Below, one piece after another: positions 4,955-62,148 of a stretch of DNA of 63,186 nucleotides; position 1 is the first letter of the stretch; each line of letters begins with the position of its first letter. This stretch comes from a bacterium BMS3Abin14 (GTDB lineage: Bacteria; BMS3Abin14). The DNA lies in NCBI GenBank assembly GCA_002897695.1, contig BDTG01000013.1:1-63186 (forward strand), read 5' to 3'. A model generated the notes under the pieces. It saw nothing but the letters and a program-made list of their open reading frames with translations, was not told the DNA's origin and searched no databases. A program made the position numbers and the translations under genes.

Positions 4955-5743
4955 TCACTCCATATACTGCACGAGGAGCTGTGAGATCAGCAGGTCTTCG
5001 TCGCCGACGCGGGCGGCTGTGTGTGCCAGAAATTCCCGCATTTCGAGGCTGATCTTCCCCGGTTCAAGCGCCCCGTAGAGGGCCTGGAACCTCTGTTTTT
5101 CCTCCTCCGTGGCGGCTTCGACAAGCCGCTCCCACAATGTCTCGTACGCTATGGCAGGCCCTCTTTCGCCCGGCTTCGCCGCCAGCGCCTCCTCCAACAT
5201 GATGTCGAAGAGGAACCACGTCTGCCCCCTCTTTTTGCCCTGCATGGGATCGGCGAGGCTCCTGTAGCGTCTGTATGATCGCTCCATTACAACGTACTTG
5301 TAGCGCCTGTAAAGCCCCAGGAGGATCTCGTCCTCCACGATGCCAGGGATGACCGAGAGTACGTCCATCTCGCCGGTCACTTCCGCGATGTCCTCGCCGT
5401 CCGGAAGGGGAACCCTGCCGGGGGTCCCCTCCGCTCCGACCTCTTCAAGGTCCTTCTGAACATTCCCATCGTCCACTTCAAGGCTATCCCATTCGGTGGA
5501 GGGGATTTTCATGCGGTCGATGAGGGTTGTATGCTCCATGGCCCTGACCCCCATCTCCTCAGCGAGCATCCTGTGCCTGATGTATAATAGCCCCCTCCTC
5601 CCATTGAATCTGAAAACGTCGGTATTATCCGAGGTTTTATCGTCGTCGCCCAAGGCATCGAGGATTTCATGGAGATGGTCATGTTCCGCGACCAGATGCT
5701 GGTCGGAAAAATATTTGGGGTGAACGCTGAAAATCCTGGTCAT
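4955..5743 (-). CDS. Pyrimidine-dimer DNA glycosylase (T4 endonuclease V/DenV-like) N-terminal domain with a ~120-aa C-terminal extension of unknown function
   Basis: N-terminus MTRIFSVHPKYFSDQHLVAEHDHL parallels T4 endoV [24 protein letters not shown]. Assigned from memory. Confidence 0.6.
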   Translation of the reverse strand: MTRIFSVHPKYFSDQHLVAEHDHLHEILDALGDDDKTSDNTDVFRFNGRRGLLYIRHRMLAEEMGVRAMEHTTLIDRMKIPSTEWDSLEVDDGNVQKDLEEVGAEGTPGRVPLPDGEDIAEVTGEMDVLSVIPGIVEDEILLGLYRRYKYVVMERSYRRYRSLADPMQGKKRGQTWFLFDIMLEEALAAKPGERGPAIAYETLWERLVEAATEEEKQRFQALYGALEPGKISLEMREFLAHTAARVGDEDLLISQLLVQYME

Positions 5744-6529
5744 TTACTCGTCTCCTTCGCCCTGCCCCTTGCCGAGAAACCCTTTGAAAGCTCTCAGGAG
5801 ATCCATGGGGATAGGGAAGATGGTGGTGGAATTATTTTCCGTCGCGATTTCCCTCAAGGTCTGAAGATATCTCAGTTGAAGGGCCTGTTCGTTGCCGGAC
5901 ATGATTTTCGCCGCTTCGGTCAGTTTCGTGGCCGACTGGAACTCGCCCTCCGCGGCAATGATCTTCGCCCGTCTTTCCCGTTCCGCCTCGGCCTGCTTTG
6001 CCATCGCCCGCTGCATCTCCTGCGGCAGGTCCACGTGCTTTATCTCCACGTTCGTCACCTTGATCCCCCACGGGTCCGTCTGGGAATCGAGAATCCCCTG
6101 CAGATCGTGGTTGATCTTATCCCGCTCGGAAAGGAGGTCGTCCAACTCCACCTGACCCAGAATGCTCCTTAAGGTCGTCTGTGCGAGCTGGCTGGTAGCG
6201 TAGAAGAAATCTTCCACCTCGACAACCGCCCTGGAGGGATCCATCACCCGGAAATACACGACGGCGTTTACCTTGACCGACACGTTGTCCCTCGTGATGA
6301 TATCCTGGGGCGGCACGTCCATCACTATCAGCCTGAGGCTGATCCGCACCATCTTCTCCATGCCGGGGATGATGTAGATGAGGCCGGGGCCGCGGGCTTT
6401 GACCAGCCTCCCCATGAAGAAGACGACCCCCCTCTCGTACTCCCTGAGGATCTTGATGCCCGAGACGATGAGGAAAAGAACGATGACCACCGCGCCGGTG
6501 ACAATGGGGTTAAAAGAAAATAAAAACAT
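5744..6529 (-). CDS. SPFH/band-7 (stomatin-like, QmcA/YbbK-type) membrane protein
   Basis: N-terminal TM helix, PHB domain and C-terminal coiled-coil ([20 protein letters not shown]). Confidence 0.85.
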
Positions 6530-6542
6530 GGCAAATCCTCCT

Positions 6543-8006
6543 TTATTGCTCTGTGTTCACCCGTTTGACTTTCAGGGACAGCCCATCTGCCTCTGTCACC
6601 TTGACCTTCTCCCCTGACTTGATAGTTTCAGTTGAGACCGCTGACCAGATCTCTCCGTGAATCATTATCTTTCCCTCCGGGGCCAGGTCGGTGCCGGCAA
6701 CCCCCACCTCTCCGATGAGCCCCTCGATCCCGGTTGTAACCTTTCTCATTCTTATCCTGACGGCAAATCCAAGTAACACCACGAAGATGAGTACGATGAT
6801 ACCTGTCATCCCGAAGATCAGGGACAGGGAAACACGGTAGTACGGATCGGCGGAGTTGAAAAACATCAGGCTACCCAACACCAGGGACAGGATGCCGCCA
6901 ACCGTCAGCATTCCGAAAGAAACCACCTTTACCTCCAGGACAAAAAGCACCAGCGCGAACAGGATAAGAAGAACGCCCGCATAGTTGACGGGCAGGAGCT
7001 GAAAAGAAAAAAAGGCAAGGATTATGGAAATCCCGCCAAGGACGCCCGGCAGGATAACGCCCGGGTTGACCAGTTCGAAGAAGATACCGAAGATCCCGAG
7101 CAGCATGAGGAGATATGCGACGTTGGGGTCGGTGATAACAGCCAGGATCCTTCTCCGGGTGCCCATGGGCCTATCCTCAATACGTGCGCCGGAGAGGGCT
7201 ATAATACGCTTTCCGCCCGACACCGTCACCTCCATCCCCTCAATTCCCTTCAACAGTGCGTCCACGTCCGGAGCTATGAAATCCACTACCCCTTCCTTAA
7301 CGGCCTCCGTCTCCGTCGAGGAGATGCTTTCCCGGACAGCCCGCTCGGCCCACTCGACGTTGCGGCCGTTTTTAGCGGCTATTGAACGTATAAAGGCCAC
7401 GGTGTCGTTGAGAATTTTGGTCGCCATGATATCGCCCTCCGGGGGCGGCGAAGCTGCCTTTCCCTTTCCATCTTTCCCGGATTCCTTCTCCCCCTCTTTC
7501 TTCTTCCCGCCGAAAAATCCCCCTCCCCCCACTGTGACAGGGTGGGCCGCCCCGATAGTAGTCCCCGGGGCCATGACCGCAATGGGAGCCGCAAGGGTAA
7601 TGAAAACTCCTGCCGATGCGGCCCTCGCCCCCGAAGGGGCAACGTAGACCGCCACCGGAACGGGCGAAGCGAGAATGGCCTTGACGATCTGCCGCATGGA
7701 TGACATGAGTCCACCGGGGGTGTCCAGCTGAAGGATCAAAAGCCCGGCTTTGTCCTTTTCCGCTTTCACGAGCTGTTCTACGATGTAGTTTGCGGTAATC
7801 GGGTTGATGGATCCGTCGACGAAAATACGAACGACCAGGGGCGGGCTCTTATCCGCATCCTGCCCGGTAAGGACAACATCACTGTCGGCCATAAGACCGG
7901 ACGGGCGCTGTCCATCGGGAAACCAGCCGGTGTCTGGAAGAGCCAGAAAAAAGCCCAGAATGGCTAAAAAGACGATTACACGCATGCAAATTCTTCTCAT
8001 GCTCAA
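6543..8006 (-). CDS. NfeD-family membrane-bound ClpP-class serine protease (stomatin operon partner)
   Basis: Signal peptide, ClpP-like domain, multi-TM segment and C-terminal OB domain. Canonically paired with the adjacent SPFH gene. Confidence 0.85.
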
Positions 8007-9322
8007 GACATCCTCGCATTGAGACCAGACACCGGAACGGCAAGCCCGTGATAATGATCCACAAGATCGGGCCCCATGCGTCTGAACGGGATCAGCACCA
8101 GGGAATCCATTTTTCCGTTTTTTTCCACCGGGGCCTTGCGATGTGTATAGATTACCACATCCGCCAACTCTTTGGCTTCCTCCGGAGAAAGCTCAGCTGG
8201 AAGGGTTTTAACGGACGTCCGGCAGCTGTAAGGAATGTTCTCCGCGGGAAAATCGGCCTCGTAGTATCGCCTCGATATATTGTACAGAAGGTGCGGGGAA
8301 CGGACTCCGAAGGCCGGTATCACTGAACTGCCTCCATCGGCATTCCACCGCCAGAAGGGCAGAAAGATCGTCTGTTTCTGTCTAACCATCACTTCCGTCC
8401 CCGCCCAGAGGCACTTTCTTTCCCGAAGTCTGGGCCCTCCCGATTCCCATCCTCGTCCGCAGTTACAGCAGAACCTTATCACCGCGGTCGTACCCGTCTG
8501 CAGATCACCGTCGCACTCGGGGCAGATAAGCGGAAGCAGTTTGAGACGGTTCTCAACCGGTGTCTGTGACTCTCCGATACCCAGATTATTTAGAAGGGTC
8601 TCCATTTCCATGTGCCCGATCTGACGTACCAGATCACCGCTGACGGCATCCAGAAGGAGCAGCCTGATCCTTTCCCCCTCCCGGACCTCCACGAGAAAAA
8701 GGGGGAAATAGAGTATGGAGTACCGCTCCCGGAGAAGGAAGGTCTTCTCCTCGATGACAAACAGGTCGGATACATCGAACCCCTCGGTGGTGTTGTGCAC
8801 GACTCTTTCGTGAAATTTCTCCCTGCTTAACTGCATAGGCAAAAAAGGGATCCCTCCGGCGTTTTCCATCGTGGCCAGAAAAAGGTGCAGGGTCTGCGCT
8901 CTGACCCCCGGAGAGAAGAGGCCAGTGGACAGGTCTGTGTGCCCTGGCCTCATCAGGTCGAAATTTCTGGTCTTGAGCTCCTCCACTGTCTCACCCCGCC
9001 GAACCTCGTCCCCCCTCTTCTCACCTGTCACCCAATGCATGGCCTGGCCTCTTGTCCTGTAGAAAGGGTAGTAAAAAGGGATAACCGACCTGATAAGAGG
9101 CGGTTTCCAGTGGTTTTGCCTGGCGATGGCAGTGATCTCAGGTGGGGTGTCCTTGACCCTGATCTTGGGCTTGATGAGGAAGTTCAGCCATGCTGAACGG
9201 CCGCCCACCACCATGAGGGAGGCACCGCAAAAGCGACACTTTGTGCCTGTGGCCTCCTGGTCGAAGACCGCTTCGCCCCCGCATTGTGGGCATTGGTGAC
9301 TGACGTAACAGGTTTTTTTCAC
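8003..9322 (-). CDS. Zinc-ribbon-containing protein of unknown function (N-terminal CPQCG..CRFCG, internal CPECDG..CCNCG), possibly a YdjG/YdjH-like partner of the SPFH protein
   Basis: Two Cx2C..Cx2C ribbons. Translationally coupled between the SPFH-ZnR gene and nfeD. Confidence 0.5.
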   Translation of the reverse strand: MKKTCYVSHQCPQCGGEAVFDQEATGTKCRFCGASLMVVGGRSAWLNFLIKPKIRVKDTPPEITAIARQNHWKPPLIRSVIPFYYPFYRTRGQAMHWVTGEKRGDEVRRGETVEELKTRNFDLMRPGHTDLSTGLFSPGVRAQTLHLFLATMENAGGIPFLPMQLSREKFHERVVHNTTEGFDVSDLFVIEEKTFLLRERYSILYFPLFLVEVREGERIRLLLLDAVSGDLVRQIGHMEMETLLNNLGIGESQTPVENRLKLLPLICPECDGDLQTGTTAVIRFCCNCGRGWESGGPRLRERKCLWAGTEVMVRQKQTIFLPFWRWNADGGSSVIPAFGVRSPHLLYNISRRYYEADFPAENIPYSCRTSVKTLPAELSPEEAKELADVVIYTHRKAPVEKNGKMDSLVLIPFRRMGPDLVDHYHGLAVPVSGLNARMS

Positions 9323-9339
9323 GTATCAGATCGCGGAGG

Positions 9340-10467
9340 TTACTGAATCTTCTCGCCGCAATTCAGACAGAAATGAGCCCCCTCCGGGGCCTTCTTCCCG
9401 CAATTGGGGCATTTCGTCTCCACCTTCTTTACCTCCTGCCCACACCGGAAACAGAATTTTGCGTCGACGGGAAGATCTGTTTGACATCGTGGACAGATCT
9501 GCCCTTTAACAACAGGCGTCCCACATCGGGAGCAGAACCTGGCATCATCAGGCACCTCCCCATGGCACCGGGGGCATGGATAACCTTTAACCGTCCCCTT
9601 CTTACCTCCCTCACTCAGGGTCCCTTTAAGAAAAGCCGGGATCATCATTCCAAGCCCCGCGCCCAGCCCCATACCCATGCCTGACTCAGCGCCTGACGTC
9701 GCCCCGTCCGCCCCTGTCTTGGCGGCATCGCCCATGAACTGCGCCGCCTTGAATCGAAGATAGTCGCTCTCGCCGACAGCCCGCATTCCTCCCCGTTCAT
9801 CGATGATTTTCTGAACATCATCAGGCGGAGTAATGGCACGTATGATGAGATCCCTGAGTTCGATACCGTACTTGAGAAACTCGTCACGGACCCTGGCCTT
9901 GGCGGCGGCTCCCAGTTCATCGTAGACCTGCGGCAGGTTAAGGAGGGTGTCAAGGTTTTCCCCAAGCAGATCGTTGATCCTCGAGACGATGATCCCTCTC
10001 AGAAAATCCGATATCTCATCGGTAGTGTAGATGCCCTGCGTCCCGGCGACTACGTTCACAAAAAGCATGGGCTGCAGAATCCTGATGGTAAAATTTCCGT
10101 TGCCCCGAAGCCGAACCATGCCTAATTCACTGTCCCGGAAAGCCACGGGATCCCTCGTACCCCAGTTCAGGTTTGTGAAGGTCTTCATGGCCACGAAATA
10201 GACGGCCACCCTGAAGGGACTCCGAAAGCCGAAGGGGAGGCTCAGCGCCTTGGTCAGAAGAGGGAGATTCTGGGAAGCAAGGGTATGCCTCCCCGGGCCA
10301 AGCACGTCGAGAGCACGGCCATCCCGAAAAAACACAGCGGCCTGATTCTCATTGACCACCAACTGCGCCCCGAATTTGATCTCACCGGTTCCCTCAGGAG
10401 GAACACGGTGCACCATCTCCTCGCCGGTTTCATCAATCCATTCCAGGACCTCTAAAAATTCACTCAT
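9340..10467 (-). CDS. SPFH-domain protein of the Band_7_1/YdjI type with three C-terminal zinc-ribbon repeats
   Basis: N-terminal SPFH-like core (EIKFGAQLVVNENQAAVFFRDG...). C-terminus carries three Cx2C-x10-14-Cx2C ribbons. Confidence 0.7.
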   Translation of the reverse strand: MSEFLEVLEWIDETGEEMVHRVPPEGTGEIKFGAQLVVNENQAAVFFRDGRALDVLGPGRHTLASQNLPLLTKALSLPFGFRSPFRVAVYFVAMKTFTNLNWGTRDPVAFRDSELGMVRLRGNGNFTIRILQPMLFVNVVAGTQGIYTTDEISDFLRGIIVSRINDLLGENLDTLLNLPQVYDELGAAAKARVRDEFLKYGIELRDLIIRAITPPDDVQKIIDERGGMRAVGESDYLRFKAAQFMGDAAKTGADGATSGAESGMGMGLGAGLGMMIPAFLKGTLSEGGKKGTVKGYPCPRCHGEVPDDARFCSRCGTPVVKGQICPRCQTDLPVDAKFCFRCGQEVKKVETKCPNCGKKAPEGAHFCLNCGEKIQ

Positions 10468-10483
10468 CCTATTACCTCACCCA

Positions 10484-10990
10484 TTATCCCGGGTCTTTCC
10501 TCTCGACAACCCGTTTTCGATCCTCGAAAGATCTCTGAACAACACCCACTGTGTCGCTTAATGATTGAAGCCAGCCCTCGGTGGTTCCGGCCTGCTGGTC
10601 GGGCACAAGCCCCTCGAGTTTTTCCGATTCACTTAGCAGCTCGATATCAAACTCGTAAAGTAGCGCCAATTCATCCTGACCGACTCCGGCCTCGTCGAAA
10701 AAGCCTGTATAACCATATGCGGCATGGCGCAATTCATCCTCAAGCCTTTCCAGCCTGATGGCAACCCGTTCCAGCGCTCCGATGGACTTCAGGGAGGCCA
10801 GGTCACCATTCCTGGACATTTCGGTGATCAACCTTGAGATCCTCCCTCTGCAGCGAATCACCGCGCCAGCGGCTTTCTCCCGGACCGCTTTGTCTGCGCT
10901 CCGTCGTTTTTCCTTCGCCTGGTAGCCGGAGATGCCCGGTATCAGGCGGGTCAAAGATTCGAGAAGTCCGGCAACCTTGGATTGAGTCAT
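10484..10990 (-). CDS. Hypothetical coiled-coil protein, operonic with the SPFH-ZnR gene
   Basis: ORF with good coding periodicity and a 10-bp spacing to the neighbouring gene. No recognisable domain. Confidence 0.45.
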   Translation of the reverse strand: MTQSKVAGLLESLTRLIPGISGYQAKEKRRSADKAVREKAAGAVIRCRGRISRLITEMSRNGDLASLKSIGALERVAIRLERLEDELRHAAYGYTGFFDEAGVGQDELALLYEFDIELLSESEKLEGLVPDQQAGTTEGWLQSLSDTVGVVQRSFEDRKRVVERKDPG

Positions 10991-11000
10991 GATATTCTCC

Positions 11001-11552
11001 CTACCTCTTTACTAGGCCTACAGGGACAGCCTTGATCTTCACCTTTCCGTCCTCATATTCCACACGGTAAGCGACACGGTCGCATCCGTATTTTTCCCTG
11101 ATCGTCCGCGTCTGATCGCCTACTATTTTCCGGACCTTGGCAATGGCAGGGGCCGGGCGGCCAGTATTTTTTCTGTATGTCCTGTCCAGAACCATAAAGA
11201 GCGAGTTCATCTGCTCCCTGTCGTCTTCCGGGGAGGAAATTTCTATGGCGCCCACCTGGGCGTACTCAATGCCGCTCCCGCCTCCCCTCCTCCTGAGTGA
11301 CCTTCCCTCTTCGATATCCCGAAGGTTCCTCTGCCAATACTGAAGAAAGACATTGTAGCGTGAGACAGCCTGCTGAACCCGGAACCTCAGGGCAGTATTG
11401 TTTATGATGGCTGCCGAAAGCAAACGGATTTCCCTCGCCACATCGCCGGCCAGCTTCTCGGGAGGCCGGTTCTGCACCCCGAGAAAATATTGATCGTACC
11501 GTGTCTTCAGCATCTGTATATCGTTTTCGAGCTTTTTAACCCTATCTTCCAT
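11001..11552 (-). CDS. Hypothetical protein, first gene of the SPFH-ZnR operon
   Basis: ORF plus operon context. No recognisable domain. Confidence 0.45.
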   Translation of the reverse strand: MEDRVKKLENDIQMLKTRYDQYFLGVQNRPPEKLAGDVAREIRLLSAAIINNTALRFRVQQAVSRYNVFLQYWQRNLRDIEEGRSLRRRGGGSGIEYAQVGAIEISSPEDDREQMNSLFMVLDRTYRKNTGRPAPAIAKVRKIVGDQTRTIREKYGCDRVAYRVEYEDGKVKIKAVPVGLVKR

Positions 11553-11745
11553 TTACCCCCCGGTAATACTGATATGATCGTGAAAAGCCATCAACTATAA
11601 GGTTCTGGTATTAAACCTTGCGAAACTTCGCTGACTTTGCGGTAAATTGGCTCATGACCTGTAGGTAAGCCGACACAAAGCTGAGTCACCGCCAAGTACG
11701 CCAAGTTGCGCAAAGTAGTTCCAGCCTTGATAGGATCGCAAAACA

Positions 11746-11772
11746 TTTATCATTTTCTTTTGAAAATGATAA
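11746..11772. promoter_or_regulatory. Perfect palindrome TTATCATTTTC-n5-GAAAATGATAA in the divergent intergenic region, followed at 11840-11920 by a cluster of GTTCCTGG-like octamers
   Basis: 11-bp inverted repeat and at least five degenerate direct repeats. Operator-like. Confidence 0.35.
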
Positions 11773-12021
11773 CAGACCCCTATAACCAATGCAAAGGTTT
11801 AGGAAACCGCGTATGGGGAAATGAAGGGCCCCAGAGTTTATTAGTTCCTGGTTCCTAGTGCCTGGTGTAGTTCAAGTTCAAACCAGGCAGTTCCTGGAAA
11901 CCGGGTACTGGTTACTGCTGTAATAAAAGGTTATTTTTTGTAATATTTTTCTTGATCCCGCCTTGCTTTAAGGATAACCTCCGTACTATCCTCACCGACA
12001 TCCTTCGCAAGGGAGGCTCAT

Positions 12022-12933
12022 TTGGCAAGTTCTTTCCTCGGCACCCGGGAGGTTTCCGAGTATCTGGGCATCAACGAGAAACAGGTCTACAGCCTTATCC
12101 ACAACCGCGGGCTCCCCGGGACCAAGATAACCGGAAAATGGCTTTTCCCCCGCCACCTGGTGGACAGGTGGATTGAATCAAGCGTTGCCGGGTTCCCGGG
12201 GGAGTGGCCTTTTGTCCAAAGGGCGCAGGGGCTTCTCCTCGTTGCAGGCAGCGATGATCCCCTTCTGGTCCGTTTGATCTCCCTCTTTCGCAGGCGCTTC
12301 ACCGAGACGATCCCACTGCAGTCGCGTGCCGGCAGCACCGAGGGCATCATGGCCTTAAAAAGGGGGCTATGCCATATCGCCGCCGTCCACCTTTACTCAG
12401 CCCAAAATCCTCACCATGGCGAAGATTATCTTACCGGCTATTTCGATCAAAGAGCGGTGGCGGTCTCCCTGGCGGTAAGGACCCAGGGACTCCTTCTCGC
12501 AAAGGGCAACCCACTTGGAATCCGCTCCCTGGAGGACATCCTGACCGGACGGCTGCGATGGGCCGGACGAGAGGTAGGAACCGGAACACGTCTTCGCCTT
12601 GAAATGGAACTTGATCACCTCGGAACTGATCGCTCGGGTTTTGCCGATGACAGTCTGACCCTGGGCAGCCACATGGAGGTCGGGGTCTCGATAATGAGGG
12701 GACAGGCTGATGCCGGCCTTGCCATCCAGAATGTCTCGGAGATACTGGATCTCGACTTCATTCCACTTTTCCGGGAACGGTTCGACCTCGTGACGTTCCG
12801 GGAGACCTTTTTTCAAAAGGAGATTCAGAACTTTTTCGGCCTTTTAAATACGATGGAATTTGCGGAAATCGGGGCCGGCCTGTCCGGTTACGACGTTTCC
12901 GGCGCGGGTAAAATTCTCACCGAGTCAATCTGA
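12022..12933 (+). CDS. Putative tungstate/molybdate-responsive regulator: N-terminal excisionase-type HTH fused to a periplasmic-binding-protein-like domain (TTG start)
   Basis: HTH motif EVSEYLGINEKQVYSLIH, then a PBP-like fold. Directly upstream of tupABC. GGGAGG RBS with TTG start. Confidence 0.6.
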   Translation: MASSFLGTREVSEYLGINEKQVYSLIHNRGLPGTKITGKWLFPRHLVDRWIESSVAGFPGEWPFVQRAQGLLLVAGSDDPLLVRLISLFRRRFTETIPLQSRAGSTEGIMALKRGLCHIAAVHLYSAQNPHHGEDYLTGYFDQRAVAVSLAVRTQGLLLAKGNPLGIRSLEDILTGRLRWAGREVGTGTRLRLEMELDHLGTDRSGFADDSLTLGSHMEVGVSIMRGQADAGLAIQNVSEILDLDFIPLFRERFDLVTFRETFFQKEIQNFFGLLNTMEFAEIGAGLSGYDVSGAGKILTESI

Positions 12934-12970
12934 TTGCCATTTTGTGCCAGGAAAAAAGGAGGAACTGTTC

Positions 12971-13813
12971 ATGAACGGAAAGCCGACAGGAATTGCGATT
13001 GTCCTTCTGCTCGCCGGGGCTATTCTCATGTCCACGTATACGCCGTGTCAGGCGGACAAAAGCCGTCTCAAGCTTTCGTCCACCACCAGTACGGACAACA
13101 CCGGGCTCCTTGACTACCTTCTGCCTGTCTTTGAAAAAAGATACGGTATCAAGGTCGACGTCATCGCGGTCGGAACCGGCAAAGCGCTCAAGCTGGCTGA
13201 AAACGGCGATGTGGATGTCACACTCGTCCACGCCCCGGCAAGGGAGATCAAGTTCGTTGCGGATGGCCACGCCGTGAACCGTCGGAAGGTAATGGCCAAC
13301 TATTTCATCATCGTAGGTCCCAAGACCGATCCTGCCGGGGTCAGAACGGCAGACAGTGCCGAGGAGGCCTTCAGGAGAATCTCCCAAAATGGCGCCACGT
13401 TTGTATCCCGCGGAGACGACTCCGGCACCAACATAAAAGAAAAACACATCTGGGAGGCCGTTCTCGGATCCGTGCCCTCAGGCAAAAGCTGGTACCTCGA
13501 ATCGGGCAAGGGGATGGGGGAAACGCTCACCATAGCCTACGAAAAGAGGGGATACACCCTCTCCGATTCCGGCACTTTCCTCAAATATTCAGACAAGGTG
13601 GACGATCTGAAGATGCTCTTCATCAAACACTCGGACCTGCTCTTCAACCCCTACGGCATCATGGCGGTCAATCCCATGAAATACCCCAACGTGAATTACG
13701 AAGGGGCCATGAAGCTCATCACCTTCATGACCTCTCCGAGCGGACAGAAGCTGATCGGTGATTTCACCGACAAATATGGAAACAAGCTTTTCACTCCCTT
13801 GGCCGGGAAATAA
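12971..13813 (+). CDS. tupA: Tungstate ABC transporter substrate-binding protein
   Basis: Signal peptide and TupA/WtpA-like SBP sequence. RBS AAAAAGGAGG precedes the ATG at 12971, so the longer 12860 ORF is rejected. Confidence 0.85.
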   Translation: MNGKPTGIAIVLLLAGAILMSTYTPCQADKSRLKLSSTTSTDNTGLLDYLLPVFEKRYGIKVDVIAVGTGKALKLAENGDVDVTLVHAPAREIKFVADGHAVNRRKVMANYFIIVGPKTDPAGVRTADSAEEAFRRISQNGATFVSRGDDSGTNIKEKHIWEAVLGSVPSGKSWYLESGKGMGETLTIAYEKRGYTLSDSGTFLKYSDKVDDLKMLFIKHSDLLFNPYGIMAVNPMKYPNVNYEGAMKLITFMTSPSGQKLIGDFTDKYGNKLFTPLAGK

Positions 13814-13879
13814 CCATAGCAGTCCCTGTTACCTGTTCCGGGGTCCTGCCGGAACATGTAACAGGAGCTTCAAATCACC

Positions 13880-14566
13880 ATGGGATATATAATCGAAGCT
13901 CTCATCGGAGCCTTCCGGCTGGTATTCTCCCTCAATCCGGAAGTGATGTCTATCGCCCTCCTTTCCCTGAAGGTGGCTCTTTCCGCCACCTTTGTCGCCG
14001 CCCTTTTGGGAATCCCTCTCGCCTACCTTGTGACGACCAGAGAATTCACCGGCAAGGGCACCCTCATAACCCTCTTCAACACCCTCATGGCCCTCCCCAC
14101 CGTGGTGGTGGGCCTCTTTGTCTACTCCTTCCTTTCCAGGAAAGGCCCTCTCGGATTTCTGGATCTCCTCTTCACTCCTACGGGGATCATCCTGGGGGAC
14201 ATCATCCTGGCATTCCCCCTCATAGTGGGTCTTACCATTGCCGCCGTAAACAGTGTTGATTCCAGGGCAAGAGTCACGGCCATGAGCCTCGGCGCATCCC
14301 CGCGGCGGGTATCTGTCACCATCCTCATGGAGGCACGCTTCGGACTCATGGCGGCGCTTTTCAACGGGTTCGGCCGGGTGGTTGCCGAGGTGGGTTCGGC
14401 CATGATGTTGGGCGGCAATATTCGAGGGTACACCCGGACCCTAACCACCGCCGTCGCCCTGGAAACGGGCAAGGGTGAGTTCGCCTTCGCCATGGCCCTC
14501 GGAATCATTCTCCTCGCCGTGGCCTTTACCGTCAATATGCTCTTTCGCAGGTTCCAGAGGTACTGA
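13880..14566 (+). CDS. tupB: Tungstate ABC transporter permease
   Basis: Six-TM ABC permease carrying the EAA-like motif. Confidence 0.85.
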   Translation: MGYIIEALIGAFRLVFSLNPEVMSIALLSLKVALSATFVAALLGIPLAYLVTTREFTGKGTLITLFNTLMALPTVVVGLFVYSFLSRKGPLGFLDLLFTPTGIILGDIILAFPLIVGLTIAAVNSVDSRARVTAMSLGASPRRVSVTILMEARFGLMAALFNGFGRVVAEVGSAMMLGGNIRGYTRTLTTAVALETGKGEFAFAMALGIILLAVAFTVNMLFRRFQRY

Positions 14567-14571
14567 CCTGG

Positions 14572-15579
14572 ATGACCCTTTTTGAAATAGAAAATTTAAT
14601 CTTTAATTATGGGGAGCGACGGGTGCTGGACATTGCGGATCTCCACATAGGCAAGGGCTGCATCACCGCCCTTACCGGGGCCAACGGTTCAGGAAAAAGC
14701 ACACTGATGATGCTCCTGGGACACCTTCTTCACCCCGCCGGGGGCCGGATTCTTTTTGAAGGGACGGACCTTAACTCCGGGACAGCATCCGCCATGACGG
14801 CTTTCCGGCGAAGGACCGGCGTCGTTCTCCAATCCCCCTACCTGTTTAAAAGCACCGTGGAGGGAAATGTGTCCTATCCCCTCCGTGTCTGCGGAACACC
14901 CAAAGAGGAAACGGCCCGACTGGTAAAAAGTGCACTGAGTTCAGTGGGGCTGCCCGGTTTTGAGATGAGAAGGTGCGCGGAGCTCTCCGGCGGCGAGACC
15001 CAGAGGGTTGCTCTCGCCAGGTCCATTGTCATGAGACCCGATCTGCTTCTCCTCGACGAACCCATGGCCAATGTAGATGCGTCCAGCCAGGCGGTAATGG
15101 AGAGGGTACTTCTGGAGATATGCCGGGATGAGGGGACGACCGTCATCTTCACCACACATAACCTGGACAGGGCCTACAGGCTTGCCGACGAGGTGGTAAC
15201 GGTTCTGGAGGGGACGGTTTCCGCCGGCGCCATGGAGAACGTGTTCAAGGGGGCCGTCTATCAGGCCGGAGGGGACTGGGTCTTTGATACGGGGCGGATT
15301 ACCATCGTCGTGCCGGAGGGAAAGGACGGTTCACACACGGCATCGATACCGCCGGAATCCATCCTGATCAGCCGCAAGCCTGGATCCACCAGCGCCAGGA
15401 ACGTTTTTTCGGGGAGGATCTCCGCCATTCAGGAGAGAAACGGATCGGTTGATATCAGGGTTGAGGCGGGGGAATCGCTCACCTCACGAATAACCACCCA
15501 ATCATACGCAGGCATGGAGCTGAAACTGGGGGAGGAGATAACCCTGATCTTCAAGGCTGAGTCGGTGAAAATCTATTAG
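14572..15579 (+). CDS. tupC: Tungstate ABC transporter ATP-binding protein with C-terminal TOBE domain
   Basis: Walker A GANGSGKST, signature LSGGETQR, Walker B LLLDEP, and a C-terminal TOBE domain. Confidence 0.85.
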   Translation: MTLFEIENLIFNYGERRVLDIADLHIGKGCITALTGANGSGKSTLMMLLGHLLHPAGGRILFEGTDLNSGTASAMTAFRRRTGVVLQSPYLFKSTVEGNVSYPLRVCGTPKEETARLVKSALSSVGLPGFEMRRCAELSGGETQRVALARSIVMRPDLLLLDEPMANVDASSQAVMERVLLEICRDEGTTVIFTTHNLDRAYRLADEVVTVLEGTVSAGAMENVFKGAVYQAGGDWVFDTGRITIVVPEGKDGSHTASIPPESILISRKPGSTSARNVFSGRISAIQERNGSVDIRVEAGESLTSRITTQSYAGMELKLGEEITLIFKAESVKIY

Positions 15580-27621: not shown

Positions 27622-27639
27622 CCCAGGACACAAAAAAAG

Positions 27640-27678
27640 ACCCCGGGACATTTAATGTCCCGGGGTCTTCAGGTGGCC
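27640..27678. terminator. Perfect 13-bp-stem hairpin GACCCCGGGACAT-ttaa-ATGTCCCGGGGTC between convergent genes
   Basis: Inverted repeat with A/T flanks on both strands. Confidence 0.65.
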
Positions 27679-27692
27679 TGCTCTAACGTGGC

Positions 27693-27893
27693 TTACAGAG
27701 CGGTGACGTTATTGGCCTGAGGTCCCTTGGGGCCGTCTACAACCTCAAAGCTCACTTTCTGGCCCTCATTCAGGGTCTTGAAGCCGTCACCCTGAATTGC
27801 CGAGAAATGGACGAAAACGTCTGGGCCTTCGGCCTGCTCGATGAACCCGAAACCCTTGGACTCGTTAAACCACTTTACAGTTCCTTCTGCCAT
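27693..27893 (-). CDS. cspA: Cold-shock protein (CspA family)
   Basis: [50 protein letters not shown] carries the RNP1/RNP2 motifs. A long 5' UTR is typical. Confidence 0.9.
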
Positions 27894-28233
27894 TTTACTT
27901 CTCCTTCTTTCTCTGTTTTTTTGCAGCTTGCCGGAACAGCCCTGGAACAAATCAAAAAAGGCCCTGAACGTAAAGCCCAAGACCATTATTCGATCAAATG
28001 TTCTCCATAAAGCTCTTCCGTACTACAAAACTGGTTTTAACCGGGAGCAACTCTCACCGGCGAGGTATAGATACTCTAAAGGAAAGGGAGTTGCAAGCTT
28101 TTTTTTTCGGTGATTATCCCCGGGAAATGGTCAGAACCTGAAACCCCTTTGCCATTTTAAAAAAATTGGGTATTTTCCAATCCCTGGGCCGATAATAATA
28201 TCGTCCAACTTTTTCAAAGGGGTATGGAAAACC

Positions 28234-50006: not shown

Positions 50007-50359
50007 CAGGTTGTCATCGCATTTCACTCAGGGCTTTCCCCTTCGCTGAAGCTATGGGGGACAAGCGCAATGACACCTCTCTCGTATTCGCGTTCCTTTC
50101 TGTCCAGAAAACAGGGTGTTGGAAACCAGGATCAGGAAGCGTCATCCACAAGAAACCCTGGTTCCGGACCGTTGACCAATATTCAGTTTTCCATTATTAG
50201 TAGGATTGAAAAAATCCATTGATGACCTTTTAAGGTGATGGAGTTCACCATGAAACTGCCCTGAGGGGATAATGACTCCTGACAAGATCGCATGCCGGCA
50301 GGGCCGTGGGATCGGCCGTCGAGAGGCTCTGCCGGACATAGACCTGGAGGAGTCGAAAT

Positions 50360-60579: not shown

Positions 60580-60900
60580 ATGAAAGCTAAGGCATTTTTG
60601 TTCGTATTTATGTTAACTTTTTTGCTAATGGCATGTGCCACCGGCGAGAAAATCACTCGGCTGAATCCTGGTATGTCTAAACAAAAAGTGGAGAGTGTTC
60701 TCGGCAAACCTGATGGATACTCTGCACCGGCTGATGGCTACGAAGTTTATAAATACACAAATAGGCTCATTTCAGGGTGGTCTTGGGACAGAGCTGATTT
60801 TAATGTGATCTTCAAAGATGGCAAAGTACAGGAGTATGGGGCTGGTGAAGTCAGGACGAAGCAAGGCGGCGTTAACACCATTTTGTTCATTTCCCCATAG
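60580..60900 (+). CDS. Lipoprotein with a BamE/SmpA_OmlA-like domain
   Basis: Lipobox LLMAC and LNPGMSKQKVESVLGKPDG. GGGAGGGG RBS. Confidence 0.55.
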   Translation: MKAKAFLFVFMLTFLLMACATGEKITRLNPGMSKQKVESVLGKPDGYSAPADGYEVYKYTNRLISGWSWDRADFNVIFKDGKVQEYGAGEVRTKQGGVNTILFISP

Positions 60901-60940
60901 CAATTACGGACGGACGAAACCCAAGTTCTGAGGAATATAA

Positions 60941-61741
60941 ATGTTTGAGGAAATGACCGATAAAGCATTGCGTCTCAAGGAGCTAGATTTACTGATCGTT
61001 AAAGCAATATCTACTTTCGATACGAAGAGTTTTGCCAAATATGTTGTTGAATTTAACGACGCAAAAAAAAGCATTCGCAGCTATGCTCTAGAACACCCTC
61101 TCCTAAACATACAGGGGATCGAAGATCCTAAGGCCTGTTTCATTATTCAAAAAGTCATGTCTGGTGAGCCTTTTGCGGTTGAGAAGGCTATGTCTGATAG
61201 CGAGATTACGGAATTCCTCAAAGGTGAACTCGATGACAATGATATAGAAAATCTTGCCTCAGATTTGTTCTATTCTTGGTTCAGTCATTATGAATACATA
61301 CAAGGTATTTATGAGATAGGCGCTTTGACGATATCTTGCAGCAAAATACCTGAAAATCTTTCGAAGTTTGTGAATGAAGCTCGTGACTGCTATGCTTTTC
61401 AGCAATTCAATGCGGTGTTTTCTCTGTGTCGCACCATCCTTGAAATCAGCATTAAGGATGTCGCAACTACCCGTAAGATCCTACCAGCAGATAATCGAGA
61501 TATCAGCTACCTGACATCTCGATCGCCCGAACTCTATGATCTAATCAATCAACTATGCGATCGGTATACTATTTTTAAAACTTTACGGGGTCAACTTCAT
61601 GAAATTAGAAGAAAGACAAACTCATTGATTCACGGAAGCCGTTCAGTGAAGAAACAGGAAGCCAGTGAGATGTTAAAGAAGACCCTTTTAGCCGTCCATC
61701 GGCTTTATGAACTTGAATCCAAGAGGCAAGGCACGACATAA
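60941..61741 (+). CDS. Hypothetical protein with a C-terminal DUF4145/HEPN-like domain (Rx6H: RRKTNSLIH) and an unknown N-terminal domain; possible Abi-like defence protein
   Basis: C-terminus FSLCRTILEISIKDV...LHEIRRKTNSLIHGS resembles the DUF4145 pattern. Low-GC gene. Confidence 0.45.
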   Translation: MFEEMTDKALRLKELDLLIVKAISTFDTKSFAKYVVEFNDAKKSIRSYALEHPLLNIQGIEDPKACFIIQKVMSGEPFAVEKAMSDSEITEFLKGELDDNDIENLASDLFYSWFSHYEYIQGIYEIGALTISCSKIPENLSKFVNEARDCYAFQQFNAVFSLCRTILEISIKDVATTRKILPADNRDISYLTSRSPELYDLINQLCDRYTIFKTLRGQLHEIRRKTNSLIHGSRSVKKQEASEMLKKTLLAVHRLYELESKRQGTT

Positions 61742-61941
61742 AAAAAAGCGGCATAACCAATGAACCTTTCCACCTTAAAACTGCCGCCAACCTGTCCAAC
61801 CAATGGGGTCCACCTCTTTCTATTGTTAATAATTGGCAGTCGCCTGTGAAATTGACCTGTTCAGAATGTGGTAACAAGATTGACAACAAGGATGTAAAAA
61901 TCTGTCCAGTATGCAATGTGAATTTCTAAAAGGGGGTTTTT

Positions 61942-62148
61942 ATGAAACGGATTGGGATGATCGGTCTAGTATTCGTTGGATTCGTTGCAGGAATACTTCT
62001 CGTTAATACCTATAGCGGGAGGATAAGTATCGCAAAGGCAGAAAATGTAGCGAACACATCTGAACAAGATGCATATAAATTAGCTAACATGACCCGACCG
62101 TACCCCTTTAGGTACCCTCCGACGGGCTCGGAGGAGCGCATCATTTGA
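61942..62148 (+). CDS. Small predicted membrane protein (68 aa), hypothetical
   Basis: Single TM helix. GGGGG-rich RBS region. Weak. Confidence 0.3.
   Translation: MKRIGMIGLVFVGFVAGILLVNTYSGRISIAKAENVANTSEQDAYKLANMTRPYPFRYPPTGSEERII

Follow-up and report, generated by a model that had tools for sequence, protein, structure and literature searches.

The DNA analysed here is a contig of 63,186 nucleotides (nt) from the bacterium BMS3Abin14 (GenBank accession number BDTG01000013.1, assembly GCA_002897695.1), and this whole stretch is referred to below as the window. It contains a minus-strand block of four tightly packed open reading frames (ORFs), encoding proteins of 183, 168, 375 and 439 amino acids, which we named p183, p168, SPFH375 and ZR439, respectively. 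We consider it probable that this region encodes a PspA-independent SPFH module of the YdjI/SamI type and that the seven-gene operon to which it belongs couples, plausibly, two SPFH assemblies for membrane stress or membrane quality control. The four-gene arrangement is not due to chance, because its order recurs on independent contigs and because a gene for a Band_7_1 protein with three zinc ribbons lies directly upstream of a relative of the ZR439 gene (hereafter ZR) in 74 of the 76 informative loci from Desulfobacterales. The unit under the strongest selection is this SPFH and ZR pair, and not the four-gene set.

Gene organization of the operon

A sequence-only reading of the window had proposed a four-gene operon at 8003-11552 on the minus strand, placed directly upstream of a canonical NfeD-stomatin pair. 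Both proposals held: the four ORFs lie exactly there, separated by gaps of 10, 16 and 17 nt, and the stop codon of ZR439 abuts the gene for a protein with Pfam NfeD domains, which is followed by a Band_7 gene. The genes of the block and the region upstream of it are as follows.

p183: 11552..11001, minus strand, ORF of 183 amino acids
p168: 10990..10484, minus strand, ORF of 168 amino acids
SPFH375: 10467..9340, minus strand, ORF of 375 amino acids
ZR439: 9322..8003, minus strand, ORF of 439 amino acids
Long NfeD (NfeD1b type): 6543..8006, minus strand, 487 amino acids, identified by Pfam
Stomatin/slipin-type SPFH protein: 5744..6529, minus strand, 261 amino acids, Pfam Band_7
Pyr_excise/DUF1722 protein: 4955..5743, minus strand, 262 amino acids, last co-oriented gene of the block
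Intergenic region upstream of p183: 11553..12021, minus strand, 469 nt, common to the operon and a divergent HTH_17 + PBP_like gene

The stop codon of ZR439 (8005-8003) either overlaps by 4 nt with a TTG start of the NfeD gene or lies 2 nt ahead of an ATG at position 8000. The NfeD and stomatin genes are on the same strand with a gap of 13 nt, and the start of the Pyr_excise/DUF1722 gene follows the stomatin stop codon at a distance of 0 nt. The block thus comprises seven co-oriented genes with no gap longer than 17 nt, with plus-strand genes on either side, and no convincing terminator-like site was seen between its genes. It is flanked by zwf and gnd on one side and by the HTH_17 + PBP_like gene and an ABC transporter on the other. 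The public product accessions for the operon region are GBE14576-GBE14581.

The 469-nt region (11553..12021) is presumed to be the promoter region of the operon. A single sigma-70-like match was detected in it (minus strand, 11795..11766), at a level not above that of shuffled sequences. A sigma-54 promoter, as in the proteobacterial psp operons, was also considered and rejected, as no -24/-12 match was present upstream of the operon.

The exact 439-amino-acid translation of ZR439, which begins with a GTG codon at 9322, was not found in a collection of 15 billion proteins in which its three neighbours are present. The public annotation probably uses a different start for this gene. The GTG start is backed by the alignments of homologues.

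SPFH375 is a soluble SPFH protein of the YdjI/SamI type

The Pfam analysis showed that SPFH375 matches Band_7_1 with an E value of 2.8e-59 and a score of 200.7 bits (gathering cut-off 24), covering profile positions 8-210 of 211. The Band_7_1 domain occupies approximately residues 27-229 and is followed by a hydrophobic low-complexity linker rich in glycine and methionine (approximately residues 255-285; GMGMGLGAGLGMMIPAFL) and by three zinc ribbons at residues 298-375. The ribbons are formed by six CxxC motifs at positions 298/312, 325/339 and 353/367, and DZR/Zn_Ribbon_1 matches fall in three stretches. This agrees with the description of a YdjI/Band_7_1-type SPFH protein with three ribbons given in the sequence-only reading.

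No membrane anchor was found in SPFH375: no 19-residue window reaches a Kyte-Doolittle value of 1.6, and the maximum, 1.32, lies inside the linker. Hydropathy analysis likewise gave no transmembrane (TM) segment in p183, p168 or ZR439. An equivalent glycine/methionine linker was present in all 97 SPFH375 homologues examined, whatever their C-terminal domain, and six CxxC motifs were present in 88 of them. The SamI protein of Bacillus subtilis has no anchor, a low-complexity linker and one C-terminal zinc finger (PMC8581546; bioRxiv 10.64898/2026.02.06.704340). SPFH375 shows every testable feature of SamI, and we concluded that it is a YdjI/SamI-type soluble SPFH protein.

ZR439 is the partner of the SPFH protein

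As had been noted from the sequence, the protein encoded directly after SPFH375 carries two zinc ribbons, with CxxC motifs at positions 11/29 and 267/285 of ZR439. The two halves of ZR439 are homologous to each other (hhalign probability 97.4%, E value 1e-11, 154 columns), and in each of them a zinc ribbon precedes an alpha/beta domain that bears the motif (Y/F)xP(F/Y)(W/Y)R. The AlphaFold2 model of the protein is confident, with a predicted local distance difference test score (pLDDT) of 89.5 and a predicted template-modelling score (pTM) of 0.86. The invariant residues are eight cysteines, several prolines, glycines and tryptophans, R141, Q143 and D225, and no recognisable set of catalytic residues is among them.

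The 147 detectable homologues of ZR439 fall into three tiers. The first is a close clade with 48-87% identity; the second is an intermediate clade of proteins of 470-500 amino acids with about 27% identity; and the third is a very large group of Desulfobacterales and related bacteria with proteins of about 410 amino acids and about 23% identity. Both in the lineage of the window and in Desulfobacterales, the partner has the duplicated form and lacks an anchor. A tblastn search for ZR439 on plasmids gave no match. The gene that follows Band_7_1 bears the annotation 'zinc ribbon domain-containing protein' in Paracoccus, Vibrio, Comamonas and Ralstonia, and these proteobacterial downstream partners match the ZR profile with E values of 1e-10 to 2e-6. 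In the three genera in which the partner was checked (Paracoccus, Vibrio and Comamonas), it has two ribbons and a single domain bearing a YxPYW motif, together with a TM helix at the C-terminus.

Ravi et al. (2024, PMC11237479) describe YdjG of B. subtilis as combining a pair of zinc ribbons with a YpeB-related NTF2-like domain and a TM segment, and assign YdjH to the TPM proteins. Because the proteobacterial ZR relatives show this published YdjG layout, we infer that ZR439 belongs to the YdjG/SamG-type partner family as a duplicated form without an anchor. The suggestion that the 439-amino-acid protein could be DUF4178/YdjH-like was not borne out: ZR439 has no Pfam match even at an E value of 1, it resembles YdjG/SamG instead, and DUF4178 is found fused to relatives of p168. 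We concluded that ZR439 is an obligate partner of the SPFH protein.

p168 and p183 are accessory proteins without detected similarity to PspA

Neither p183 nor p168 has a Pfam match at an E value of 0.1 or lower. The earlier statement that the two proteins have no recognisable domains is therefore right for Pfam but wrong for NCBIfam, where p183 matches MXAN_5187_C_dom and p168 matches LIMLP_15305_fam, two named families that are still uncharacterised.

p168 is a soluble, compact helical bundle with an invariant N-terminal motif, P-G-x-x-G-Y...E-x-R-R-x-x-D. Its score against LIMLP_15305_fam (NF047596) is 31.1 bits, under the curated cut-off of 210, and 65 of 70 members of the p168 family match LIMLP_15305 at an E value of 1e-3 or lower. 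Judged from these profile scores, p168 is a distant relative in a LIMLP_15305-like superfamily and not an equivalog. An exhaustive profile search collected 1669 representative clusters (50% identity) of the p168 family at an E value of 1e-3 or lower, and the family is absent from Pfam. Some relatives are fused to DUF4178, others to an N-terminal ribbon of the double-zinc-ribbon type, and others to long low-complexity tails. p168 lies upstream of the Band_7_1 gene in two of the ZR clades, namely that of the window and the intermediate clade. In a separate context, a 41%-identical relative has the gene for a zinc-ribbon protein on one side and a Band_7_1 + HTH_17 gene on the other. We concluded that p168 is a recurrent accessory of Band_7_1 genes.

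The gene order at that separate context, seen in L103 (7260-11429) and L104, is a 174-amino-acid zinc-ribbon protein, the p168 relative, the Band_7_1-HTH_17 fusion and a 518-amino-acid protein. The last of these gave weak, sub-threshold Pfam matches to MFS_1 (E value 0.0025) and Spermine_synth (E value 0.0046).

p183 is soluble and basic (isoelectric point 9.9) and consists of an N-terminal region without a family match, a basic linker (RRRGGGSG) and a C-terminal MXAN_5187_C domain. The match to MXAN_5187_C_dom (NF041621) scores 35.1 bits (curated cut-off 30), and all 20 aligned homologues match the same model, the best with an E value of 6e-21. Homologues of p183 were found only in the close clade, where they adjoin p168-SPFH-ZR, and p183 is a clade-specific accessory gene. 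A literature search found no paper on the MXAN_5187 family, and the searches for MXAN_5187 and LIMLP_15305 gave just one incidental table entry. The possibility that p183 and p168 are paralogues was rejected (hhalign probability 0.2%).

The view that the two upstream proteins are not PspA-like was upheld. The profiles of p168 and p183 gave hhalign probabilities below 1% against PspA of Escherichia coli, none of the seven operon products has a PspA_IM30 match in Pfam, and a phmmer search with PspA across the 63-kb window found nothing. Profile searches of the PDB with three families returned ribbon and coiled-coil noise alone, with no PspA, Vipp1 or ESCRT-III chain. The fold check, made for p168 only, showed that its fold is not the elongated ESCRT-III helical hairpin. 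PspA/ESCRT-III identity is thus rejected by sequence for both proteins and by fold for p168.

The downstream NfeD, stomatin and Pyr_excise/DUF1722 genes

The NfeD protein matches NfeD_membrane (E value 3.7e-25), NfeD1b_N (2.1e-17), NfeD (2.4e-16) and CLP_protease (1.2e-5) in Pfam and has hydrophobic segments; in it, an N-terminal domain like ClpP is followed by a membrane domain and, at the C-terminus, by the NfeD OB domain. A low-complexity insert rich in glycine, lysine and glutamate was observed in the ClpP-like domain (approximately residues 165-200). The stomatin has a Band_7 match with an E value of 2.1e-39 and a hydrophobic segment at residues 1-32, and it is publicly annotated as 'slipin family protein'. 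These two genes are a standard NfeD-stomatin pair.

The last protein, of 262 amino acids, matches Pyr_excise (3.8e-7) in its N-terminal part and DUF1722 (3.8e-6). Its gene is probably in the same transcript as the rest of the operon, and a functional link between this protein and the membrane operon is doubtful. Pyr_excise is a pyrimidine-dimer DNA glycosylase domain, and a gene of the DNA-repair type is a strange companion for a membrane operon.

Conservation of the module across genomes

The genome scan covered one genome per species of the GTDB and was taken from the Desulfobacterales subset of the ZR family. Among the 600 pattern matches listed, 496 encode a ZR relative, and 80 loci were kept. 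Among the informative loci, the adjacency of SPFH and ZR is missing only from L070 and from L044, where the assembly has a gap. Relatives of p183, p168 and NfeD were found in none of the 80 Desulfobacterales loci. The SPFH-ZR pair was also present in L001, L002 and L110-L113, of which L112 and L113 represent two more lineages with the pair alone. All three loci of the intermediate clade (L002, L110 and L111) have p168-SPFH-ZR. In L110, the p168-SPFH-ZR triad is followed by an MscS gene (5422-6321) in the same orientation, a single case that fits a theme of membrane tension.

The close clade keeps the order p183-p168-SPFH-ZR-NfeD-stomatin, usually with the Pyr_excise/DUF1722 gene, on independent metagenome contigs. 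The full order was seen on contigs L086, L088, L090/91, L094 and L097, and shorter contigs agree within their reach. An NfeD gene follows ZR in L001, L086-L088, L090, L091, L093, L094, L096 and L097, and the stomatin is kept after NfeD on the full-order contigs. The Pyr_excise/DUF1722 gene is downstream in L086, L088, L094 and L097 and lies farther off in L091. The sequence-only reading had staked its proposal on the gene order being conserved, and the order is indeed kept in relatives at 51-69% ZR identity. Its choice of the four-gene set as the unit stood in part: the set is kept in the close clade, but the widespread unit is the SPFH-ZR pair, to which p168 is added in two ZR clades and p183 in one. 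These distributions show that accessory genes were added in layers across clades.

Comparison with known systems

The closest described system is the pspA-ydjGHI (pspA-samGHI) operon of B. subtilis, in which SamG and SamH recruit SamI to the membrane and the formation of PspA foci depends on SamI (PMC8581546; bioRxiv 10.64898/2026.02.06.704340). In both systems a soluble SPFH protein of the Band_7_1 type carries a low-complexity linker ahead of its C-terminal zinc finger, and the SPFH gene adjoins that of a multi-zinc-ribbon partner with a globular domain, which in ZR439 may resemble the YpeB/NTF2-like fold; the proteobacterial ZR members share the layout of two zinc ribbons, one domain and a TM segment. 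The operon in the window differs in having neither pspA nor the TPM-domain protein YdjH/SamH (none of its seven proteins matches TPM), in the three ribbons on the tail of its SPFH protein as against one in SamI, in the duplicated form of ZR439 (ribbon-domain-ribbon-domain) without a membrane helix, and in the attached p168, p183 and NfeD-stomatin genes. The operon probably works like pspA-samGHI but is not a member of that group, as it lacks the PspA and TPM features. The term 'undescribed' used for it in the sequence-only reading is fair for its architecture, whereas the system is a variant of the SamI/SamG theme and not of a separate kind. The SPFH locus on a Butyrivibrio plasmid was considered as a ydj-like operon and rejected.

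The NfeD-stomatin part has the standard pair in the usual order, as in the operons of Pyrococcus (PH1510/PH1511) and E. coli (QmcA-YbbJ) (PMC13086221, PMC2636767). It differs from the described types of NfeD-SPFH operon in that a further SPFH module, a soluble one, lies upstream, to which the pair is translationally coupled and with which it is conserved.

Operons of PspA with CesT/Tir, DUF4178 and polyamine genes (spermine synthase/7TM), and their band-7 variants, have also been described (PMC11237479). They resemble the present system in that relatives of p168 are fused to DUF4178 and in that at one p168-Band_7_1 locus (the L103/L104 build) the protein with weak MFS_1/Spermine_synth matches follows. 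The window differs in having no PspA, CesT/Tir, DUF350 or polyamine gene, and the p168 domain does not appear in that work. The archaeal 'Meth_adaptin' loci encode an SPFH, coiled-coil and zinc-ribbon protein together with adaptin-appendage proteins that bear zinc ribbons (Makarova et al. 2024, PMC10936438). They are alike, by description only, in combining a ribbon-tailed SPFH protein with a non-enzymatic, beta-rich zinc-ribbon protein. They differ in being archaeal and linked to Vps4/ESCRT, and the present system gave no match to adaptin appendages or ESCRT.

Possible function of the module and alternative explanations

From the sequence features described above, a sub-membrane scaffold or stress function seems the most likely one for the module. 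SPFH375 would oligomerise under the membrane, as SPFH proteins do generally, and ZR439, as an adaptor without enzymatic activity, would bind it and hold it in position, possibly by ribbon-ribbon contacts. Where the partner has lost its helix, contact with the membrane may come from the glycine-zipper-like linker, from other membrane proteins, or from both. p168 and p183 could be accessory adaptor or regulator subunits. In the close clade, the module would be co-transcribed with the long NfeD protease and the stomatin as the seven-gene operon, and the module and the NfeD-stomatin assembly may cooperate in the sensing of membrane stress or in the quality control of membrane proteins.

Several points weigh against this interpretation. 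The membrane location of the module is itself deduced, as there is no membrane helix in any of the four proteins. ZR439 was likened to YdjG, and SPFH375 to YdjI, by published descriptions rather than by sequence alignment, and the ribbons account for part of the similarity between the proteobacterial partners and the ZR profile. In some relatives HTH_17 replaces the C-terminal ribbons of the SPFH protein, which could point to a DNA-related output and not to scaffolding alone. The NfeD-stomatin link is confined to one uncultured clade, as neither the intermediate clade nor any of the 80 Desulfobacterales loci has it, and the complete genome CP070682.1 (58% identical) keeps the four genes and yet has an NfeD of 329 amino acids and no stomatin.

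The last two points also favour a different explanation, namely that the SPFH-ZR(-p168-p183) module and the NfeD-stomatin pair are two independent neighbours whose adjacency is synteny inherited in one clade. It is also in keeping with this explanation that NfeD and stomatin form a self-sufficient pair elsewhere. However, no terminator-like site separates ZR from NfeD, the stop codon of the former overlapping the start of the latter or lying 2 nt from it, and an order of six or seven genes has been kept on at least 6 independent contigs with protein identities of 51-69%. We hold independence of the two parts to be possible, although rather doubtful.

The HTH_17 fusions bear on a second explanation, in which the system is a signalling or transcription device: the SPFH oligomer would sequester and release a nucleic-acid-binding tail (ribbons here, HTH_17 in relatives), the output being gene regulation in place of membrane scaffolding. 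The close Band_7_1 relatives in L103/L104 carry C-terminal HTH_17 instead of ribbons, and a Comamonas protein is annotated 'SPFH and helix-turn-helix domain-containing protein'. The ribbons gave weak matches of the TFIIB/S27e type, the loss of SamI in B. subtilis leads to global transcriptional changes, and the last gene of the operon encodes a DNA-glycosylase-like protein. On the other hand, zinc ribbons are generic and often make protein-protein contacts, no match to a DNA-binding family was above its threshold, and the conserved partners point to the membrane (the TM-anchored ZR in Proteobacteria and the MscS, NfeD and stomatin neighbours). A regulatory output seems unlikely to us.

A bolder form of the membrane interpretation is that the anchor-less SPFH375/ZR439 complex and p168/p183 dock on the membrane-embedded NfeD-stomatin cage as a two-layer, dual-SPFH machine, with p168/p183 taking the place of PspA as effector or adaptor. 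We regard such docking as quite unlikely.

An anti-phage or abortive-infection defence module built on the SPFH protein, for which the varying genes around the SPFH-ZR pair, the genes for TIR and TRAFs-binding-domain proteins just upstream of the pair on the opposite strand of a Vibrio coralliilyticus plasmid (NZ_CP048695.1; L108 1-4093) and a Butyrivibrio plasmid copy amid restriction and toxin-antitoxin genes could be cited, is highly improbable, as the four proteins have no credible match in PADLOC-DB 2.0 (best E value 0.038, the next 0.17 on the first ribbon of ZR439) and no nuclease, NTPase, TIR or other effector domain, their neighbours in the window are housekeeping genes (zwf, gnd and a transporter), and the pair is near-universal and not patchy within the sampled Desulfobacterales.

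Other features of the window

The divergent genes at 12022-15579 (plus strand) encode an HTH_17 + PBP_like regulator, a periplasmic binding protein, a permease-like ORF and an ABC ATPase with a TOBE domain, and look like a transporter of the molybdate/tungstate type. The HTH_17 domain of the regulator is of the same type as that replacing the ribbons on some Band_7_1 relatives.

A match to the Rfam cspA thermoregulator lies at 27635-27980 (minus strand) and covers the full model with 95.4 bits (gathering score 78). This RNA family is best known from enterobacteria, and the host of the window is an unclassified hydrothermal metagenome-assembled genome. A match to the fluoride riboswitch (crcB motif, 44.8 bits) lies at 50225-50288 (plus strand). 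At 60001-62000 the GC content falls to 0.40, compared with about 0.55 elsewhere, and the GC skew turns positive; this part near the end of the window may be foreign or mobile DNA.

Significance of the SPFH-ZR pair

The NfeD-stomatin part of the operon is ordinary and already known. What is new is the recognition of a widespread SPFH-ZR pair without PspA and of an anchor-less, duplicated form of the partner, as well as the attached p168 and p183 families and the clade-specific joining of the module to the NfeD-stomatin operon. The orphan p168 family, which comprises some 1700 clusters (50% identity), can now be placed in the context of Band_7_1 and DUF4178. The seven-gene form is an elaboration of one uncultured clade and raises the question of whether two SPFH assemblies cooperate. 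Were the docking into a dual-SPFH machine true, it would link SPFH scaffolds to the repair or quality control of membranes without PspA, and would give the large LIMLP_15305-like and MXAN_5187 families their first function.

SPFH proteins are universal organisers of membranes, and their bacterial partners are mostly unknown. The YdjI/SamI-type SPFH protein, so far studied only in Bacillus beside PspA, travels with a zinc-ribbon partner in hundreds of species. These include cultured Paracoccus, Vibrio, Comamonas and Ralstonia, which are genetically tractable hosts. Since the pair usually occurs without PspA, the SPFH-partner pair, and not PspA, is the conserved unit, which fits the recent finding in Bacillus that the developmental phenotype of samI mutants is independent of PspA.

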